This document shows positions 4,917 through 51,106 of a stretch of 64,000 nt of DNA, one piece after another (the first letter of the stretch is position 1; each line of letters opens with the position of its first letter). The DNA comes from a virus (taxonomy: Duplodnaviria > Caudoviricetes), in IMG/VR virus record IMGVR_UViG_2974511964_000001, positions 32,001-96,000 of that record; one strand, written 5' to 3'. The notes beneath the pieces are model-generated. The model was given only the letters and a program-made list of their open reading frames with translations, ran no database searches and was not told the origin of the DNA. The position numbers and the translations under genes are program-made.

Positions 4917-5441
4917 ATGGCAATTGCCACTGAAACGGCTCATATTAGCCAAGCTATTGCATTTTCCAAAAGAACAGATTTATGGCTTGAACTAGCTAAG
5001 AGCTCTAAATGGACTGATGAAACAGAACCAGACGCTGAATCAACTTCAACGACAGCACTAACTGAACCTTTAGTTTATGCTAAAGTAAACCAGATTAATT
5101 TAATTCACAAGAAACCATCTGATGACACAAGCGCTGACCCTTCTGATATTATCATATATGGCGGTCAAAAATGGCTACCAGTAAGTGAATCAGATGCATA
5201 TAAGAATGATGCTAGATTTGTGTTGTTTACTGTAAGCATTGATGTAGGAGCAGTTCCTACCTTCTCATGGCGTCAATCCGGCATTGTGGATGGCGTTGTA
5301 CTAGCAAACGGTACTACTGGATTAATCGCTACTGCTGACAAGGTTACTAGTGTAGGAAACTTATACATGTATGATAACCACGTAGTAAACAATTATACTG
5401 ATGATATGAAGCTAGTAATTAGCTACGTAGCAGAATTTTAA
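4917..5441 (+). CDS. Conserved baseplate/tail structural protein
   Basis: MAIAT..AH, W.DE..P motif; position in the SPO1/Twort-like baseplate cluster. Confidence 0.7.
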   Translation: MAIATETAHISQAIAFSKRTDLWLELAKSSKWTDETEPDAESTSTTALTEPLVYAKVNQINLIHKKPSDDTSADPSDIIIYGGQKWLPVSESDAYKNDARFVLFTVSIDVGAVPTFSWRQSGIVDGVVLANGTTGLIATADKVTSVGNLYMYDNHVVNNYTDDMKLVISYVAEF

Positions 5442-5463
5442 AAATAGGATGGTGAAATAATTA

Positions 5464-8400
5464 ATGCCAAAGTATGATGACAGTCAAAGCCCTTATAATA
5501 ATGGGTTTGACGCAAACAAAAGATTTTCAAAAGTATTGTTTCATCCGGGTCGTCCTGCGTTTTCACAGGAAATTCTCGAAATGGAATCAATGCAAAACTA
5601 TAACACAACCATGCTAGGTGACACCCTTTTCCAAGAAGGCGCAATCATATCTGGTATGAACGTTATTCCAAAGACATTTACAAATAATGGTGGAACAACT
5701 GTTAAGTACCCAAACAACTTCTCTGTAAAAACGGCCACAGCTATTAACAGTGCTCTGACAACAACAACTTATACCAGTGATGGCGTTATTGGTGTTAACT
5801 CTGTAGGTGCTGTTAAGACGGATTACCCCGGTATGTCGTTTGAAACTATGATTACAAAGGGTTTATATTCCACTCTTCACTTTAAGATAACAAAAACAAG
5901 TGGTACTCTTAGCAAGATTAGCTTTGACTATGATACTACAAAGATGACGCCCATATCATATAACATTGATAATAAAGCAGTAGCTACTGCTCTTAATGAC
6001 ATGACAGGTACTCCATTAGTTGATGCTAGTGGTAACCCAATTGCGCTTGACACAAACACGGACCATGATGTTGTTATTGTATTTCAAACTCTGGATTCTG
6101 CAAATACAAGCTTAAGCTTGATGCTTAATTCTGGGTACAATGCATTAACCACAGGTGTAAATGTTAATATTACAAACCTTATGTCAGAAGATGGCAAGGT
6201 TGCTCATGATTGGTCAATTAACTCTAATGATGGTAATGCTACCAGTTCAATTAACCGTACTAAGGTATATGGTATTTCTAGTGGGCGTATCTGGTTAGAG
6301 GGTGCTGTTAGGAGTTTTGATGGCGATGAAATATCAATTAAAGGTATTGGAACTGAAACAATTGGTGCAGTTCTAAATGAAACTGTTGTTACTTCTACTG
6401 ATGACTCAGATTTGCTTGACCATACTTCTGGTTCAGACACCTATGGTCTTGCCGGAGCCGATAGGACTAAGTATCAAGTAACCTTGACCTACAACGACCC
6501 AACGGCTACACCGATATTTGTATTTGTTGACAACCACCTTAACTCGAATGAGTTAAAACCAGACTATGGTTCATTAGGTCAAATACTTGCAAAGCGTATG
6601 TATGACCAGTCAGGTAGTTTCCGTGTTTCTGGGTTTGATGTATCTGTCAAAGATTATAGCCTAGACTCAAGTAAATTACAATTGGTTGTTGATGCTGGAC
6701 AAGCATATGTTCGTGGTTACTCAATTAATACCACTGAAAACACTAACCTTTTGATTGACAAGGCTGAACAAACTGAGGAAACCCCTAATGAGCAGTACAT
6801 TTATAATGCCGAAAACGGTGTTTATACTTTTGTTCAACAGCCTGTACAAACTGTTGCTAGTGTAACTGCTTCTGTTCAAGGTTCAAATGCCAGTGTTCCT
6901 CGCAGTTCTACTAGCATTACTGACCAATTTTCAACAGAGGCTGTGTATAGGATTGAGTCTGTTACACAGGGTTCAACAGCATATATTGAAGGTACTGACT
7001 TTGTTCGTATCAGTACAAACTCTATACGCTGGGGTCAAGATGCTAACGGTAATGTTTTAACTGGGGCTAAGATACCTAAGGCTGGTTCAACTTACCGAGT
7101 TGTATATGATTATACAAAAGTATTAACAGAAGACAAAGATTACAAGGTTATTGTTAATGGTGGTACAACTAAGCTTGATATTGCTAACCAGAATGGCCTT
7201 AAGCCTATTGCGGGTTCAATTGTCAATGTAGACTACGTATACTTCTTAGCTCGTATTGACATGATTCTAATCACTTCTGATATTAATAACCCATTTAAGA
7301 TTATAAAAGGTACACCGATGACGTTCTCAACGGTAACTCCACCGATTGTTAATGACCCTTATACTCTTGAATTGGGTTATGTACTAGTATACCCAGGAAC
7401 TGGAGAAAACTTAGCAAATAAAGCGTTGTTCACAATGCAAACAGTTACTAATATTCCATTCTCAGGTCTTCAAAAGTGGAGCACAAGACTAGATAACTTG
7501 GAATACAACTTGGCTGTACAGCAACTATCTGCTAAAGCAAAAGAGGACGAAGACCCAACAACTGTAAAGGACGCTTTCTCAGACAGTTTCAACAGTGTAA
7601 ACACTGCTGATACTTTTCATGATGGTTTTGCCGTTGACTATGCACCTGAGGAAGGCGAACTAAGAATGCCTACTCAGTATACGTATACTGCCATTCCAAC
7701 GGTAGCTGAGGATTACAGCACAAGTGCTAGAATTTGGCATACTTCTGATATTTCGTCTCAGGCGCTCGCAACTTCTGGGCTATCTAGTTCCAGTGGTGTG
7801 ATTGACCAACAGCAACTTTTATCAACAGGTATTATAAATGTTAATGAGTATCAAGTTTTCAATGTTAATGGGGTACTTAAGTTAATACCCGATACAGATA
7901 ACTGGATTGATACAACTAGCACAACTGTGATAGATACTAGTTCTAGAGTTAAGAAATTACGGCTTAATCAGTTCTGGAAGAGTGACCCAAAGAATTACAG
8001 CCGTTATTACAAAGGGGATACTCTTAATTATTTCAACAAGATAACTTTAGATAATGGTCAAAAGTGGACTACGACAAGGACTAATTCAACCTATTCTGGA
8101 TATATTATTTCAAGCGGTGGTACCAAAACTGTTAGTTCTGCTATTGAATATATGAGACAGCGTAAGGTTCAGTTTGTTGCTAGGAACTTTGAACCATATA
8201 CTGATAATGTTCAAGCAACCATTACTTCAATACCAGTTGAACAAGTTGGTTGGGGCCCAGATATGAACGTTGATGGCGGTGGTGGCCCATACAGGGGTTC
8301 AGCCCATAACTCATGGAAGGCTGATAGTAACGGAATGATTTATGGTAGCTTTATGATTCCTGCTGGCTTAAAGTGTGGTACTAGAACAGTTAGTCTGTTT

Positions 8401-11664: not shown

Positions 11665-11698
11665 AAAAGACCTTACAGAATTAACTGTAGGGTCTTTT
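11665..11698. terminator. Bidirectional intrinsic terminator
   Basis: AAAAGACCTTACAG-loop-CTGTAGGGTCTTTT between the convergent lysin and NUDIX genes. Confidence 0.85.
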
Positions 11699-11711: not shown

Positions 11712-12248
11712 TTACTTATTACTAATATTTCTAAACTCTTTAATTGCTAGGTTAGCAGCCGCCGAGTGTACTTGGTTCTCAGCAGAATTTAGTGACACCC
11801 ACTTCCAGTCTCCGATGTATTCATCATCATCAAAGTCTGTACTTACCATCTTGTAGTTATCACTAGTTAGTCTAACGATGAAAACATGAGAACGTTCATC
11901 TGTGAAACCCTCTGATAGAGTATAAATTCCAACTCGTTTAAACGCTTTAGGGTCAACTAGCAATCCTGTTTCCTCTTGCAATTCTCTACGAGCGGTAACA
12001 TAGGGGTCTTCATCTTTCTTAATCAACCCTGCTGGAAAGCCAGCAACCGTTTTGTAAAGTGGGCTACGGTATTCATATTCAATTAATACTTTGTTATCTT
12101 TATTAACGACTAGCATTGTGATTGAATCCGACTTTTTAATTATTTCTCGATTAGCTACAACGCCGTTGGCTAACTTAATAGACAAACGATATAAATCAAA
12201 TATAGCACCTTTAAACAGCTTCTCAGAGCTAATTACTTTTGGATTCAT
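11712..12248 (-). CDS. NUDIX hydrolase, ADP-ribose pyrophosphatase-like
   Basis: FPAGL....EDP..TARRELQEETGL Nudix box; EYRSP, S.GFTDE and DDDEYI features of ADPRases. Confidence 0.85.
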   Translation of the reverse strand: MNPKVISSEKLFKGAIFDLYRLSIKLANGVVANREIIKKSDSITMLVVNKDNKVLIEYEYRSPLYKTVAGFPAGLIKKDEDPYVTARRELQEETGLLVDPKAFKRVGIYTLSEGFTDERSHVFIVRLTSDNYKMVSTDFDDDEYIGDWKWVSLNSAENQVHSAAANLAIKEFRNISNK

Positions 12249-12250
12249 AA

Positions 12251-13357
12251 TTACTTACCTCCATTTTTAATTAGCTCTAAGGCTCTCTCATAGCGTGCTA
12301 GGAACCCTTGTGGGTCAGAGCTGTCACCCTTATCGTCTAAAATAACTACTTTGTCAGAAAACCCCTGATTTGAAATCTCTTCCATTAGGTTGTCGTGAAA
12401 GGCATCCCTAGTGCTTTCCCAATCCATATTTCTAAACCCATCATCAACATATTTAGTTACAGGTGGGATAACGATAATTAAATCCCACTCTTCTTTTTTA
12501 ACCGTATTGGCATAAATCTGAGTAAGGTTTTCATAATCCTCTTTAGGAAGATACATCTTAGCATAGACATTAGTAACCATAGCATCAGTGTCACAAATTA
12601 CAATTCCTTGATTAGCTGGGCTATGCATTTCAGCTTTGTTAGCATCATACTGTCCTTGAAAGAAGTGTGAGTAATCATCAACAGTTAGTTCATCATCAGT
12701 TAGATTATACTTTTCTTCATAGTAACGGGCATACTCGGTACTAAATGGAGCATTAACTGAACGAGCTACGTGTTTAATAAGTGTTGATTTACCAACAGAT
12801 GCTGAGCCAACAACCAATACCTTATAGGTAAAGTGACGCCGGAAAACACGATTGATATAGTTCCAATATTTATGTGGGTCATTGCGAATCATTGTTGCTG
12901 ATATTGGGATTACTTTTCTGTCTTCTAGTTTAGTATGCCATTCAGGTAACAGCTCATGGAATTTGTCATCATATTCTTGTTCGCCTGTGTATACTGTGAT
13001 TTCAGCATCCTTATTTGTAGTTGCTTTATCCACAATTTCTTCGAGTTTTAACAACCAAGGCTTCCAACCGTCAGGATAGCGTGGAATATTATCTTCGTTA
13101 AGCATAGCTACCACAATGTTAGGCTCATCAGCAAAGGCTTCTCTTAAATATCTAAACCGTTTATAAAGTGGTAGTCCGATTTTATCTCCTCGGTCACCTT
13201 TATAGCCGCTTACGACTAGTACAACACCATCGTTAACAGCTAGCGCTCTGTATAAATCTTGTTGATGACCCGAGTGGAATGGTGACCAAGTCCCAAAATA
13301 TACACCAATTTTATTACCTGAAAGTTTATTCTTTGTAATCAATTCTAAATTATTCAT
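12251..13357 (-). CDS. nadR: NadR-type bifunctional NMN adenylyltransferase / nicotinamide riboside kinase (no HTH)
   Basis: FGTWSPFHSGH (HxGH), ISATMIR, GSASVGKST Walker A, CDTD, YVDDG.R; likely start ATG at 13357, overlapping the pnuC stop. Confidence 0.92.
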   Translation of the reverse strand: MNNLELITKNKLSGNKIGVYFGTWSPFHSGHQQDLYRALAVNDGVVLVVSGYKGDRGDKIGLPLYKRFRYLREAFADEPNIVVAMLNEDNIPRYPDGWKPWLLKLEEIVDKATTNKDAEITVYTGEQEYDDKFHELLPEWHTKLEDRKVIPISATMIRNDPHKYWNYINRVFRRHFTYKVLVVGSASVGKSTLIKHVARSVNAPFSTEYARYYEEKYNLTDDELTVDDYSHFFQGQYDANKAEMHSPANQGIVICDTDAMVTNVYAKMYLPKEDYENLTQIYANTVKKEEWDLIIVIPPVTKYVDDGFRNMDWESTRDAFHDNLMEEISNQGFSDKVVILDDKGDSSDPQGFLARYERALELIKNGGK

Positions 13358-14120
13358 TATTAGATACCCCACTATTGTTTTCCTTTGTGTACCAAACGTA
13401 AGCTCCATAAATTGCATTAATCGTCATAATTATTTGTAGAATAAACATGCTTAATGCAGAAGCTCCACCACTAGTTAACTGAACATACCAAATGTAAATA
13501 TTTAACAAATCTAGTCCAATCCATACGACCCATTGTGAACGGTACCCATATGTCATTAGAATTTGACCAATAATACCAAGTGGCAATACAGCACTATCTC
13601 TTAGAACTTGATTACCATTAAATTTGAATCCAATATAAACATTTACGGCGTAAAGTGCTAGTAATCCTATTACAGTTAACGTAGCTAATAGTGGGGTAAT
13701 CTTTTTACTGATAACACTATCATCATTTGAGCTATTTAACGTTTTATACCAAACGTAGATACCAACGAACTGCATGATAGTATAAAATATTTGAGAAGAA
13801 ATATCCCCAATTAAACGGTTATGCAAAGAAGCAATTAGCCATGATAGGCTACCAATTGTTCCCCACATGAAATTGGTTAGCTTGCCCTTATCTACTAGTA
13901 TTAAACTCATAGCAGTAGCTACACTAGTAATTACTCCAGCATAACCTGAAAAAGAGAAGTCACCTTGAAACATGAAAGCAACAATTGAAGCACCAACCAT
14001 AAGGAACATTAGTAAATACTCCTTATAATTAAACTCTGTTAATTCCTTGATATTACGCTTAATTGAAAACGTATCTTTAATGCCAGTACCTAATAATTTA
14101 TAATCTATATTTTTAGTCAT
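13350..14120 (-). CDS. pnuC: Nicotinamide riboside transporter PnuC
   Basis: Multiple TM helices; KGKLTNF, GIYVW, GQILM...YRSQWVVWI..D and N..YG...W motifs; upstream of nadR. Confidence 0.9.
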   Translation of the reverse strand: MTKNIDYKLLGTGIKDTFSIKRNIKELTEFNYKEYLLMFLMVGASIVAFMFQGDFSFSGYAGVITSVATAMSLILVDKGKLTNFMWGTIGSLSWLIASLHNRLIGDISSQIFYTIMQFVGIYVWYKTLNSSNDDSVISKKITPLLATLTVIGLLALYAVNVYIGFKFNGNQVLRDSAVLPLGIIGQILMTYGYRSQWVVWIGLDLLNIYIWYVQLTSGGASALSMFILQIIMTINAIYGAYVWYTKENNSGVSNNE

Positions 14121-14127
14121 AATTTTA

Positions 14128-14171
14128 TCTCCTATTGTTTTTACTGTGCCGTGGGCGGAAAGAAACGCACA
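14128..14171 (-). promoter_or_regulatory. NAD+-II (pnuC-motif) riboswitch, compact mini form, overlapping the pnuC SD
   Basis: RNA UGUGCGUUUCUUUCCGCCCACGGCACAGUAAAAACAAUAGGAGA: P1 UGUGC/GCACA, GCGUU..UCCG..CACGGC core, A-rich AAAAACAA linker, UCC able to pair with GGA of the SD; resembles the streptococcal pnuC NAD+-II aptamer as I recall it. Confidence 0.8.
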
Positions 14172-14223
14172 TTTTTATTTAATTTTATTTTCCGTCTATA
14201 TGATATTTAATACTAATCATATC

Positions 14224-14253
14224 TTATGGCGGAGGTCTAAGAGTTATATCCAT
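14224..14253 (-). CDS. Leader peptide MDITLRPPP* (uORF)
   Basis: ATG GAT ATA ACT CTT AGA CCT CCG CCA TAA with SD AAGGGAG (14265-14271), just downstream of the operon promoter. Confidence 0.6.
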   Translation of the reverse strand: MDITLRPPP

Positions 14254-14281
14254 ATAGTCTAATTCTCCCTTCTATATAAAA

Positions 14282-14310
14282 AGTATAGCACTAAATATAT
14301 CATTTGTCAA
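14282..14310 (-). promoter_or_regulatory. Sigma-A promoter of the pnuC-nadR-NUDIX operon
   Basis: TTGACA-17 bp-TATACT with TG extension, minus strand. Confidence 0.85.
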
Positions 14311-14339
14311 TATAATTATTACTAATATTTATAAATGTA

Positions 14340-15345
14340 TGTTTATTCATATAACTATACTTTATTCATTCTATCAAGTATTGTCCGAATGGTCCCGGCT
14401 TAGAACCCGGCCTAGGCTGAGACTATATAATATTAATAGTGTGTCTTCGTTAGTATTTAGTTCTCAACGTCTTGTGGTCTACGTCCCGCTAGTAGTTTAT
14501 AAGCGTTATTAGTCCAGCCCACCTGATTACCATAAATATGTAATCAAAAATCTTTAAGTTCAAGTTCAAATTCCTTATTATGTATTAATAAATCAATCCT
14601 AAACACATGCTATCATACTTAATCTGTAAAACGGTTTTGACCTTGACTCTCCTGCTGTTCAGAGAGAGGGAGTAAGTGAATGAGATACAGTTAGTCCATA
14701 GATGGATAGTTTAGCGTAAATCTATTACTAGAAATACAATACTAAGCTAAGCTCTATGGACAATAACTGCATAATAACTAATTAACTAATCCAACTGTTC
14801 GTCGGTCGGTCGGTCGGTCATTTCAACAGGAGTTGGTTATTCAAGTCACTACGTATTGCTATCCTAACATTGGTTACTACATTGAGTGTTAAGCGATTGT
14901 TTTCTTCATCATGAGGACTTATCGTCTAGCTTTATTATAATCTATTAGGATAGCTCAGCATCTATACTTGTAATACTAACCTAGCTACCAGCATTCCAGC
15001 CACTGGTAGGTTATTCGCATAAGCAGGTTAATATCTCCACCCGTTTTCAGGGCACTGGAAACCTCTTACAGCATTTATTTAACGACCTGCTACTCGGTCA
15101 AACCCACCACTGCAACTCCTAAACGGTGGGTTCCTAGTCACTTTTATAGAATCGGAGGGACTATTCAAATATGCTCCTGTCTCTTTTTGTTTGGTATCAG
15201 TGAATATTACCTTTAGGTGGTCTCGCCTATTGGGTATCCCTATTAAGTTTTAAAGTTATCTTATAGCTCTGCGCATTTCGGTAACTTCTTTTGTAACTAG
15301 GCTATTTAGTTATCCTCGGTTAGCCGTGTAACCTTATTTTTAATT
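14340..15345. ncRNA. Large structured non-coding element (candidate ncRNA and/or replication origin)
   Basis: No ORF of 60 aa or more; many nested helices, e.g. 14688-14702/14753-14769, 14858-14867/14945-14954, 15023-15029/15084-15090, 15101-15108/15125-15132; G-U pairs favour folding of the + strand. Confidence 0.55.
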
Positions 15346-15347
15346 CT

Positions 15348-15376
15348 AGTATACCATACTCTTTTCAAAAGTAAAC
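15348..15376 (-). promoter_or_regulatory. Leftward extended -10 promoter firing into the non-coding element
   Basis: GTTTAC-17 bp-TATACT with TG at the extended -10 position. Confidence 0.5.
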
Positions 15377-15398
15377 CCAATTTATATAGAAAAATTTA

Positions 15399-15427
15399 TT
15401 GACTACTAAATTATATAATGTTACTAT
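15399..15427 (+). promoter_or_regulatory. Sigma-A promoter of the replication operon
   Basis: TTGACT-17 bp-TACTAT with TG extension. Confidence 0.7.
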
Positions 15428-15478
15428 AGTCTATAGAATAAATACATTTCACGGGCATCAATAAGGAGGTGCTATATA

Positions 15479-31452: not shown

Positions 31453-33710
31453 ATGGTTAAAGTAATGGCAGTACTAGAGTTCCCTAGAGTATCATATTTC
31501 AAGAAGTCTACTAATGGAGAGTATGATTTTAATTTTATGTCTACTAGGGCTGGAAAGCTACTAAATAAGACATTGACAGCTCCTAGAGCAGGATTAGGAC
31601 TTGATTTAAAAGATGTTGATATAGAATTTGCGTATGATTCTATTCCAAAAGTATATAAAGACAATAGCTATGCACCTATCTCAATTAAATCTGGTAAGCC
31701 TTCCTTTGATAGATTAAAAGCTAAGATAGCAGAAACTAATCCAGATTTACTATTAGCGTTTGGTGGCACATCTTGTTTAGCATTGTTGGGTAAGAAGGGG
31801 GTTAATGACCTAAGAGGACGCCCTTATGATTTATCCTTAGAGAATAGAACTTACACTGTTTTCCCAATGCTTAACCCAGAAGATATTTTAACTTCACCTA
31901 ATAAAGAACTACTGTTAAAAGTTGATATTGGTCTAGTTAAACGATTTTTAAAGGGTGGCAAGGAAGCTTTAAAGCCTAACGTAGGTAAGTATGAACTGGT
32001 GGAAGACTTTAGTAGAGTTAAACAAATATTTACTAACATTTTAGGGTTACCCCCATTGTCTAAGCCTAAATATAATATTGTAGCAGTCGATACCGAAACT
32101 AATACACTGGAAACTAACAACAAGGGTGCTAAGCCTATTATTCTATCATTGTCATGGGAAGAGCACCAAGGAGTATGTATCCCTCTAAAGCATGATTTAG
32201 TCCCAGATTTATGGACAGATGAACAGTTTAACCAAATAAAACAGTGGATACTAGATTTATTTGAAGCGGACCAGTGGAAGGTTCTACACAATGGGAAATA
32301 TGATATCAAGATGTTTATGGATACTTATGGGCTAAAACATGCTCGCAAGTGTGTGGATACCTTAATCATGTTCTGGATTAGCGTTATCGAAGAAAGCACA
32401 GTCAGCAAAGGGTTGAAGGATTTAGCTTGGTTATATACGGATATGGGTGGTTATGAAGAACCACTAGATGAATTTAAAGAATCCTATGTACAAAAGGATT
32501 ATGACCGTTGGTATAAGGAAGAGGAGCAGCGATTAATTGATGAGGCTAAAGCTAATCCATTAAAAACAGGTAAGCCTCGCAAGCCTAAATTACCAGCCAA
32601 GTCGAATTACCCCGGATTAGTTAACAAAGTGGATGGTAGCAAGTTTAACTATGAATGGATTCCATTAGAAATTATTTACCCGTATGCTGCCGGTGACACT
32701 GATGCTTGTTTACGGATTTATAATCAGTTGTTTAAGAAGGTTAAAACTAATCCTAATTGGGTAAACTTAGTGTTCAATGTGTATCCTAAGCTAGATGATG
32801 CCTTATGCCATATGGAACATAACGGTTTACAAATTGACAATAACAAGGCCAAAGAGCTGGCTAAGGCTTATGGTGACCGTAAAGAAAACACCTTGAATGC
32901 TATTCATAAGATAGTTCCAGAGATTAAGCAGGTAGAGCAAGAGAGAATTGATAACCTAGCTAAGCGAGCTAAACTAATGGCAAGTGTTAAGCCTAAGGAT
33001 AGAACTGAGGAAGATAAAGCTTTCATCAAAGAGGCTGGTAAGTACAACGGTAACAACCCTAAGACTGGTGAGCCAAAGTATAAAGTTAATTTAGACTCGA
33101 ATAATGACCTCGGATATATTCTGTATGAAGTATTGGGGTATACCTTACCACCAGAACCAAACTTTCTAACTGATACTACTGTTAAGCACCGTATTCCACA
33201 AGATAAGCTAACTTATAAAAACTATCGAGTTAATATCGAGGCTATTGAGTATATTCGTGATAACTATGATAAGAAGCTAGGTGAGTTGCTAGTAACGTAT
33301 AGTAAGACTGTTACTGCCTTGTCAGGTTTTGTGCTTAAGTTACCAGCATTACAAGACCCTAATGGGAGAATCCATACTAGGTTTAACCCAACTGGTACAG
33401 TTACAAGCCGCCTTAGCTCGTCAGGAAATTTTAATGCTCAGAACCTTACTAGGCCAGAAACAGACCCCCGCAAGTTTAATCATAAGTATTCAGTTAAGTC
33501 AATGATTCATTCCCGTTTTAAGGGTGGTGTTATTGCCAATATTGACTTTAAATCACTGGAAGTATATGTAATGGCACTTATCTCTAAAGACCGCTCCTTA
33601 ACGCAAACATTACTAGATAATAAAGATGTTCATAAGCATAATGCTAGTGTTGCCTATGGTATACCGGAAGAGGATGTAACTAAGGATTTACGAACGAAAG
33701 CAAAAGCCGT
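31453..33710 (+). CDS. Family A DNA polymerase, exon 1 (UDG-like N-domain, 3'-5' exonuclease, motif A)
   Basis: VDTET, HNGKYD, YAAGD, TGTVTSRLSS, DFKSLE, DVH, R.KAKAV. Confidence 0.92.
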
Positions 33711-50509: not shown

Positions 50510-51106
50510 ATGAACTTGAATTTGGAAACTGAGGAGCTAAAAACATTATTACCACATTGCAAAGTAACTGATGATTATGTTGCTTTCTTCTCAGATAAAA
50601 GTGTGTTTAGCAATGGGTATGATTGTGAGTTTAACTATGATGACAAGGGCGTACATAGCGCTCAACAAGCCTTAGTATATGGAAAAGCTTTATTGTTGGG
50701 AGATTACTCCATAGCAGAAAAGGTATTAGATACTAAGAATACCCCTATGGCTTATCACAACCTAAACAAGCAGATTAATGGTGATGTTAACTTATGGGAA
50801 AATTATCGTAGTCGAGTAATGATTTCTATTTTAGACGATAAGTTTAATGATAGCGAACGTCTATACTTGCTTAAAGCTACTGGTAACCGTAAGCTGTTAC
50901 TAGCATCCCCTTATGATAGCATTTGGGGTATTGGTGCCGGTCTTAGCAAGGTAGATACGGTATGGGATAGTTATACTGGTAAAAACTTGTTGGGTGAGTC
51001 TTTGATGAAAGTACGCAACAATAACTACAAATCATGGCCGGTATTCACTGCTCAAACACAGGAAGCTGATATTTATAGTACCTCTGCTAGCTTGCTGTCA
51101 TACTAA
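50510..51106 (+). CDS. NADAR/YbiA-family protein
   Basis: FSN.Y, KA..GD, W, KF, L.ATG, ASPYD.IWGIG, G.NLLG..LMKVR; promoter TTGACA at 50453. Confidence 0.88.
   Translation: MNLNLETEELKTLLPHCKVTDDYVAFFSDKSVFSNGYDCEFNYDDKGVHSAQQALVYGKALLLGDYSIAEKVLDTKNTPMAYHNLNKQINGDVNLWENYRSRVMISILDDKFNDSERLYLLKATGNRKLLLASPYDSIWGIGAGLSKVDTVWDSYTGKNLLGESLMKVRNNNYKSWPVFTAQTQEADIYSTSASLLSY

Follow-up and report, generated by a model that had tools for sequence, protein, structure and literature searches.

A putative NARP3-type nicotinamide riboside salvage operon with a P1a-less NAD+-II riboswitch in a Lactobacillus plantarum myophage

Operon and encoded enzymes

The window analyzed here is a stretch of 64,000 nucleotides (nt), positions 32,001 to 96,000 of the IMG/VR record IMGVR_UViG_2974511964_000001, which was assigned by sequence comparison to a Harbinvirus-like Lactobacillus plantarum myophage. 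Its minus strand carries an operon that runs from a promoter through a 9-codon upstream open reading frame (uORF), a variable hairpin with the motif GACGG, a riboswitch, and the genes pnuC, nadR, and nudix to a terminator (Table 1). The region is probably a nicotinamide riboside (NR) salvage operon of a phage with a Gram-positive host, similar in type to NARP3, a reconstitution pathway for nicotinamide adenine dinucleotide (NAD+), with the translation of pnuC set by a NAD+-II riboswitch that is devoid of stem P1a. The first-pass annotation of this DNA had described a promoter, a leader peptide, a riboswitch, three genes, and a terminator, and all of these parts were recovered in place or within a few bases of it. 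The operon region is 97-98% identical to those of the L. plantarum myophages Semele and Lpa804, 90% to that of Bacchae, 87% to that of LP65, and 82% to that of LpeD; these relatives belong to the genera Harbinvirus, Salchichonvirus, and Elpedvirus of the Herelleviridae.

By their sequences, the encoded enzymes are a PnuC transporter, a bifunctional NadR, and a Nudix hydrolase similar to ADP-ribose pyrophosphatases (ADPRases), as had been proposed at first reading; family matches and relatives of solved structure agree on this. PnuC scored 97.6 bits with TIGR01528 (cut-off 42) and also matched PF04973. NadR scored 344.9 bits with TIGR01526 (cut-off 341) and aligned end to end with the solved bifunctional NadR of Lactococcus lactis (6gye, E 1.6e-137); it has no N-terminal helix-turn-helix (HTH) domain, and the first 8 nt of its gene are shared with the end of pnuC. 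The Nudix protein matched PF00293 and contains an intact Nudix box (G-x5-E-x7-REUxEExGU, residues 74-96) and, farther along, the invariant Glu. Among solved structures, its best matches are without exception ADPRases (8wv3, E 5e-23 over residues 3-145), its close relatives are few, and the phage Nudix clade is marked by two small insertions.

The existing records of all named relatives list the three genes under the names transporter, adenylyltransferase, and ADP-ribose pyrophosphatase, in LP65 since 2004, and therefore the gene content is not a discovery. The LP65 record has nadR annotated as two ORFs, orf84 and orf85 (L004:3040-4147); the gene may be split there, or a frameshift or a sequencing error may be the cause. 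Elsewhere in the window, a NADAR-domain protein (PF08719, 93.5 bits), whose function is linked to NAD/ADP-ribose, is encoded at 50594-51019 on the plus strand. A NAD-dependent ligase and a macro domain were looked for in the phage genome, and neither was found.

Table 1. Features of the pnuC-nadR-nudix operon and its leader, in window coordinates.
Feature	Position	Strand	Basis
Sigma-A-type promoter, TTGACA-17-TATACT with extended -10 TG	14310..14282	-	11/12 match
uORF MDITLRPPP-stop, AAGGGAG site upstream	ATG 14253 to TAA 14224	-	sequence, comparison of leader versions
Variable hairpin, then invariant GACGG	14223..14192	-	leader comparison among lineages
P1a-less NAD+-II (pnuC-motif) riboswitch, 47 nt, ending in the pnuC ribosome-binding site	14173..14127	-	covariance model
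Riboswitch P1 helix	14171-14167 with 14149-14145	-	mapping on published structure
Riboswitch A5 strand	14142-14138	-	mapping on published structure
GGAG of the pnuC ribosome-binding site	14132-14129	-	sequence
pnuC, nicotinamide riboside transporter, 256 aa	14120..13350	-	PF04973/TIGR01528
nadR without HTH, NMN adenylyltransferase and ribosylnicotinamide kinase, 368 aa	13357..12251	-	TIGR01526
Nudix hydrolase, ADP-ribose-pyrophosphatase-like, 178 aa, own GGAGG site	12248..11712	-	PF00293
Two-way intrinsic terminator, common to the operon and the convergent endolysin gene	11698..11665	.	14-bp stem, T run on each side

The nadR start in Table 1 follows the annotation of the relatives; the mechanically called ORF begins at 13417.

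Riboswitch and upstream leader

A covariance model was built from 23 bacterial pnuC leader sequences, with phage sequences excluded. It matched the window over its full length in front of pnuC (14173..14127, minus strand) with 39.7 bits and an E value of 7.6e-7; the second-best match in the window reached 15 bits, and the element is present once in the 138-kb phage genome. The architecture common to the phage leader and the sequences of Peng et al. (2023) comprises a 5-bp P1 helix, GUU, a C/U-rich strand, a G, a linker, ACG, the P1 return strand, a 2-nt turn, five adenines, CAA-N-A, and GGAG, and the whole core is shared with the published Streptococcus parasanguinis riboswitch crystal construct. 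The nucleotides of ligand site 1 were assigned by manual mapping to the numbering used in PMC10085692, and C5, G6, U7, U8, G15, A31, C32, G33, G34, A45, C46, A47, and A50 were all kept (window 14167-14133). In crystal numbering, the nucleotides of the main ligand site and of both base quadruples are all present, as is the five-adenine strand after P1 and a 2-nt linker (Table 1). The phage P1 represents a fifth pair combination beside the bacterial ones, and the loop strand CUUUCC is complementary to GGAG(A) of the pnuC ribosome-binding site, which makes a predicted pseudoknot. By sequence and structure, the leader element is a member of the NAD+-II class, as the first-pass annotation had supposed, and the gene identities are shown here as well.

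Rfam scans of the window and the leader (gathering threshold and E ≤ 10) returned nothing relevant, and the bacterial pnuC leaders had no Rfam match either. Rfam 15 also misses the canonical Streptococcus pnuC-motif loci (fetched by pattern), so the negative result for the phage leader carries no weight. In single-sequence folding, the stability of the leader was no better than that of shuffles (z 0.48).

Stem P1a is missing from the phage element, and a CCC linker is found instead (G-CCC-ACG). Since P1a is dispensable for the binding of nicotinamide mononucleotide (NMN) in vitro, its loss marks a variant and does not exclude class membership; NMN-dependent assembly has been demonstrated for a P1a-less form (Peng et al. 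2023). Xu et al. (NAR 2023, PMC9841397) joined G15 to the next A by zero to four cytidines. NMN was bound most tightly with three cytidines (Kd 18.3 uM), and the minimal forms assayed with NAD+, those with one C and with a direct join, had a far poorer affinity for it. Given that NMN is a good ligand of P1a-less aptamers and NAD+ a much poorer one, the phage element may sense NMN, an intermediate of the pathway, more likely than NAD+. The 56 nt preceding the pnuC start differ between the window and LpeD at 2 positions, compared with 63% identity at the third codon positions of pnuC (P 4.5e-9), and the same 56 nt have 1 difference between the window and LP65 (P 1.3e-4). These comparisons place the element under strong purifying selection.

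To characterize the leader upstream of the riboswitch, five versions were compared (window and Bacchae; Lpa804; L080; LP65 and L082; LpeD). All five contain a Shine-Dalgarno-like site at a fixed distance from an ATG, three variable codons, and then Leu-Arg-Pro-Pro-Pro (LRPPP), followed by a stop codon or by 6 to 13 more unconserved codons. Within the LRPPP codons, nucleotide changes occur only at the third positions of two Pro codons and are synonymous, a pattern that points to a translated peptide with LRPPP as its constant part. Consecutive prolines are known to cause a translational pause that depends on elongation factor P (EF-P). In the bacterial pnuC leaders searched, no proline uORF was found except for one Leuconostoc citreum case, MMRINKPP-stop (L031:~1320-1350); it shares the string CCGCCATAA with the phage uORF, which may be a coincidence.

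The stem sequence of the hairpin upstream of GACGG varies by lineage with its pairing kept, and folding predicts, for several lineages, that GACGG pairs with CCG in the Pro codons. When the uORF was masked during thermodynamic folding, GACGG shifted to a riboswitch strand and the ribosome-binding site was freed in the window and Lpa804; no such shift occurred in L080, LP65, and LpeD. A switch in which GACGG pairs with either UCCGCC copy is backed only in the window's own lineage and was treated as a hypothesis, not as a finding. RNAalifold suggested that the Pro codons pair with the pnuC ribosome-binding site, a structure that was set aside; LpeD breaks one of its four pairs.

The promoter is the best-scoring site in 4.1 kb, in which promoter-like sites are rarer than in shuffles. 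It is kept in Lpa804 and Bacchae, and LpeD has its own consensus promoter in the same place. The cassette is flanked by lysis genes (holin and GH25-LysM endolysin) and replication genes and is the sole minus-strand unit of that stretch. Next to the promoter, positions 14320-15478 make up about 1.1 kb without any ORF of at least 60 aa in an otherwise densely coding genome; this segment had no Rfam match, and Lpa804 carries an HNH endonuclease gene inserted at the equivalent place. A minus-strand promoter-like site at 15375..15348 is directed at the pnuC operon; the interval between the two was found to hold no terminator on the minus strand.

Occurrence in bacteria and other phages

The NAD+-II class was described from about 43 Streptococcus sequences, and the family has been reported almost only from that genus. 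PnuC relatives in Lactobacillaceae (38-51% identity) were found to have the same riboswitch directly before their start codons. A pattern of 22 fixed bases, derived from the S. parasanguinis construct and the phage leader with the three outer P1 pairs left free, occurred at 36 places, spread over 34 of the 401 Lactobacillaceae genomes searched; its reversed control occurred at none. All 29 places that were checked as loci had a PnuC homologue directly downstream, P1a was missing in 35 of the 36 places, and nadR followed pnuC in only 2 bacterial loci. In the bacterial set, P1 was paired in 100% of cells, with changes on both sides in three of the five pairs; none of 500 shuffles reached the P1 score, and the slid controls collapsed. 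In some Lactobacillaceae, the pnuC promoter overlaps with a palindrome of the GTGTCAAGACA type that resembles a repressor operator. The repressor could be NiaR, and the pnuC genes with this palindrome may be under protein and RNA control together.

Among the viral sequences of IMG/VR, the riboswitch pattern was found in L. plantarum phages only, and one metagenome scan contributed three further relatives. A search of viral contigs with an exact 16-mer from the riboswitch was rejected: of its 18 loci, only three were the known L. plantarum phages, and the rest were estimated to be at about chance expectation for a collection of this size. An unrelated, uncultured phage-like contig of 19 kb with phage-only protein families (L076, Logan SRR32130140) has a G9-type P1a-less mini-riboswitch at 5084-5131 (50.4 bits) preceding pnuC. 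Its pnuC, nudix, and NADAR genes are located at 5139-7655, with NADAR adjoining the pnuC-nudix pair; its PnuC is 22% and its Nudix protein 47% identical to that of the window. In 12 kb of L076, nadR was not found, and neither tblastn of its PnuC nor megablast of the contig against the phage collection gave a match. A histidine phosphatase is encoded upstream and a CCA-adding enzyme downstream.

The co-occurrence of riboswitch and operon in phages, for which the first-pass annotation had proposed a survey, was thus seen in the L. plantarum phages and, in the form riboswitch-pnuC-nudix, in L076; it did not extend to the L. brevis phages ENFP1 and 3-521. The genes pnuC and nadR are 1.5 kb apart in ENFP1, and phage 3-521 has two tandem nadR-like genes followed by nudix and pnuC (L078:499-2839). 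PnuC homologues as such were present in 444 phage records from many hosts.

Proposed function, alternatives, and known systems

In the proposed mechanism, host RNA polymerase would transcribe the operon early from the near-consensus promoter. When plentiful, NMN as the most likely ligand (possibly NAD+ or NR) would bind the riboswitch core, and in the ligand-bound form the C/U-rich loop strand would pair with the GGAG of the ribosome-binding site and block the initiation of pnuC. At a low nucleotide pool, the site would be free and the importer would be made. The riboswitch would mask only the ribosome-binding site of pnuC; the overlapping nadR probably follows by translational coupling, and nudix could initiate independently from its own strong GGAGG site. 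PnuC would import NR, and the HTH-less NadR would phosphorylate NR to NMN and adenylylate NMN to NAD+. A shortage of nicotinamide nucleotides, caused by nutrient limitation or by a NADase defence, would then lead to more NR import and NAD+ synthesis. We infer that the phage variant binds its ligand, that it works as an OFF switch, that the LRPPP uORF has a role, and, by analogy with NARP3, that the operon acts in counter-defence; in such a role, immune NAD+ depletion would throw the riboswitch, and the Nudix enzyme would clear ADP-ribose. A two-input sensor, combining an EF-P- or proline-dependent pause at LRPPP with an NMN-selective mini-riboswitch so that NAD+ reconstitution is deployed only upon the immune NAD+ collapse of the host, read via RNA, is a speculative extension that we hold to be rather unlikely.

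Several observations weigh against the proposed function. The L. brevis phages ENFP1 and 3-521 contain pnuC and nadR with no riboswitch, so the pathway can do without gating. The operon promoter and the uORF start are both missing from Semele, owing to a deletion of about 120 nt. G9 is replaced by U in all six phages, and G is invariant at this position across the bacterial examples; the strand that pairs with the ribosome-binding site is one U longer than in every bacterial example (5 nt). Together with the CCC linker, these changes are the three features in which the phage element differs from all bacterial examples, and because of G9U and the extra U, site 2 and the pseudoknot may be weakened. 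The Nudix protein is under all NCBIfam equivalog cut-offs. ADPRases usually carry a proline, in an S-P-G motif, about 16 residues past the Nudix box. This proline is missing, with S-E-G in the window and S-A-G or S-S-G in the phage relatives.

One alternative sees no immune sensor here but an ordinary auxiliary metabolic module that inherited its homeostatic feedback: NAD+ would be boosted for phage replication in a niacin-dependent host, and a host-type riboswitch (NMN high, importer off) would have been carried along with pnuC. The same mini-riboswitch over chromosomal pnuC in the 34 Lactobacillaceae genomes agrees with such an origin, but the phage element is a distinct variant that is invariant across three phage genera, and the order pnuC-nadR-nudix is a phage arrangement, rarely approached by the bacterial loci with their two cases of nadR after pnuC. 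The preference of P1a-less aptamers for NMN over NAD+, the 444 phage records with PnuC from many hosts, and the related L. brevis phages that manage without the riboswitch also suit a metabolic module, whereas the PnuC and NadR pair has been shown to neutralize Sir2-HerA. We regard a purely metabolic module as possible rather than likely. The homeostatic reading is nevertheless equally compatible with the data as the counter-defence reading, and a metabolic module and an immune sensor are not exclusive of each other.

For the third gene, it is conceivable, if not favored, that the Nudix enzyme is not a clearer of ADP-ribose and acts on another dinucleotide or signal (NADH, an immune signal derived from ADP-ribose, or NAD-capped RNA), or converts ADP-ribose to AMP and ribose-5-phosphate as nucleotide salvage only. 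The scores below the equivalog cut-offs would be explained in this way, as would the E, A, or S in place of the S-P-G proline, the two small insertions of the phage clade, the scarcity of close relatives, and the position of the L076 nudix gene next to NADAR. Nevertheless, the fact that the best solved relatives are all ADPRases, the intact Nudix box and invariant Glu, and the precedent of NatV of phage KVP40, in which an ADPRase Nudix domain accompanies an NMN adenylyltransferase, argue against these alternatives. Finally, it is improbable that the element lost its sensing through G9U, the extra U, and the CCC linker and is now a relic, decayed or put to another use, that serves only as a constitutive translation-initiation region or is bound by a protein: although G9 and the 5-nt pairing strand are invariant in bacteria and altered in the phages, all site-1 nucleotides are kept, G9 touches the ligand by its phosphate only and position 11, which the extra U adjoins, is variable and solvent-exposed in the published structure (Peng et al. 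2023), CCC performed best among the minimal linkers in experiments, and conservation is far above that of synonymous sites.

The import route, which the first-pass annotation had inferred to be distinct, is no longer new. Osterman et al. (2024) reported that phage NadR genes usually adjoin PnuC and proposed a further NAD+ reconstitution route, and Yan et al. (Sci Adv 2026, PMC13464706) showed that PnuC and an HTH-less NadR of the E. coli phage Bas30 overcome Sir2-HerA and named the pathway NARP3. The gene set is a further member of that published pathway, and the new part is the regulated leader with its viral P1a-less NAD+-II variant and LRPPP uORF. A literature search returned no paper combining riboswitch, bacteriophage, nicotinamide riboside, and pnuC, and among the papers searched the operon appears to be the first phage NAD+ reconstitution pathway under a metabolite-sensing RNA. 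To our knowledge, nothing has been known of the regulation of such pathways, although the pathways themselves are a current topic. The metabolite that would be sensed is the one destroyed by host immunity. The NAD+-II class is extended by a natural P1a-less form, common in Lactobacillaceae, and by a phage form with the linker that proved best in the laboratory; the riboswitch field would thus gain a predicted natural 47-nt NMN sensor. For phage biology, switch-locked mutants would offer a genetic handle on whether counter-defence is constitutive or induced.

With NARP3 (Bas30_86, NadR-like, and Bas30_87, PnuC-like), the operon shares an adjacent PnuC-type importer and HTH-less bifunctional NadR in one phage operon. 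The predicted chemistry is also the same, PnuC importing NR and NadR making NMN and then NAD+ (PMC13464706). In contrast to NARP3, the window phage has a Gram-positive host, its PnuC shares about 30% identity with that of T5-like phages of Salmonella and Escherichia, among which NARP3 is reported, and its operon adds a third gene (nudix), a riboswitch, and a uORF leader. The window NadR is far nearer to that of L. lactis; its match to PDB 9x6f, which by date and name is probably Bas30_86, had an E value of 2.8e-44. PMC13464706 lists mainly Salmonella and Escherichia phages, leaves riboswitches and Lactobacillus unmentioned, and names Nudix only as the KVP40 NatV domain and among enzymes of general NAD turnover; it describes no Nudix gene as a third partner of the pair. 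The coupling of NAD+ synthesis to an ADPRase-type Nudix is likewise known from KVP40 NadV/NatV (NARP2) and from bacterial NadM-Nudix fusions; there, however, one polypeptide holds both the adenylyltransferase and the Nudix domain, and synthesis starts from nicotinamide via Nampt, whereas the window has a separate gene and would use imported NR.

The leader, with a metabolite-sensing RNA and a short ORF containing consecutive Pro codons, resembles the Salmonella mgtA and mgtCBR leaders, in which the consecutive Pro codons of the mgtL and mgtP uORFs tie translation to EF-P or proline supply (PMC3641672, PMC6460261). The ligand, the genes, and the wiring are different. The closest likeness of the riboswitch is to the Streptococcus NAD+-II/pnuC motif (Panchapakesan 2021; Peng 2023; Xu 2023), with which it has in common P1, the GUU core, the C/U-rich strand pairing with the ribosome-binding site, G15, ACG, the A5 strand, CAA-N-A, and the location directly before pnuC; it differs by the CCC linker in place of P1a, G9U, a pairing strand longer by one U, and its viral encoding. 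The engineered delta-P1a NMN aptamers (PMC9841397) include the same G15-CCC-A joint as their best-affinity variant. Those aptamers were made in the laboratory from a Streptococcus sequence, whereas the phage form is natural and carries further changes.

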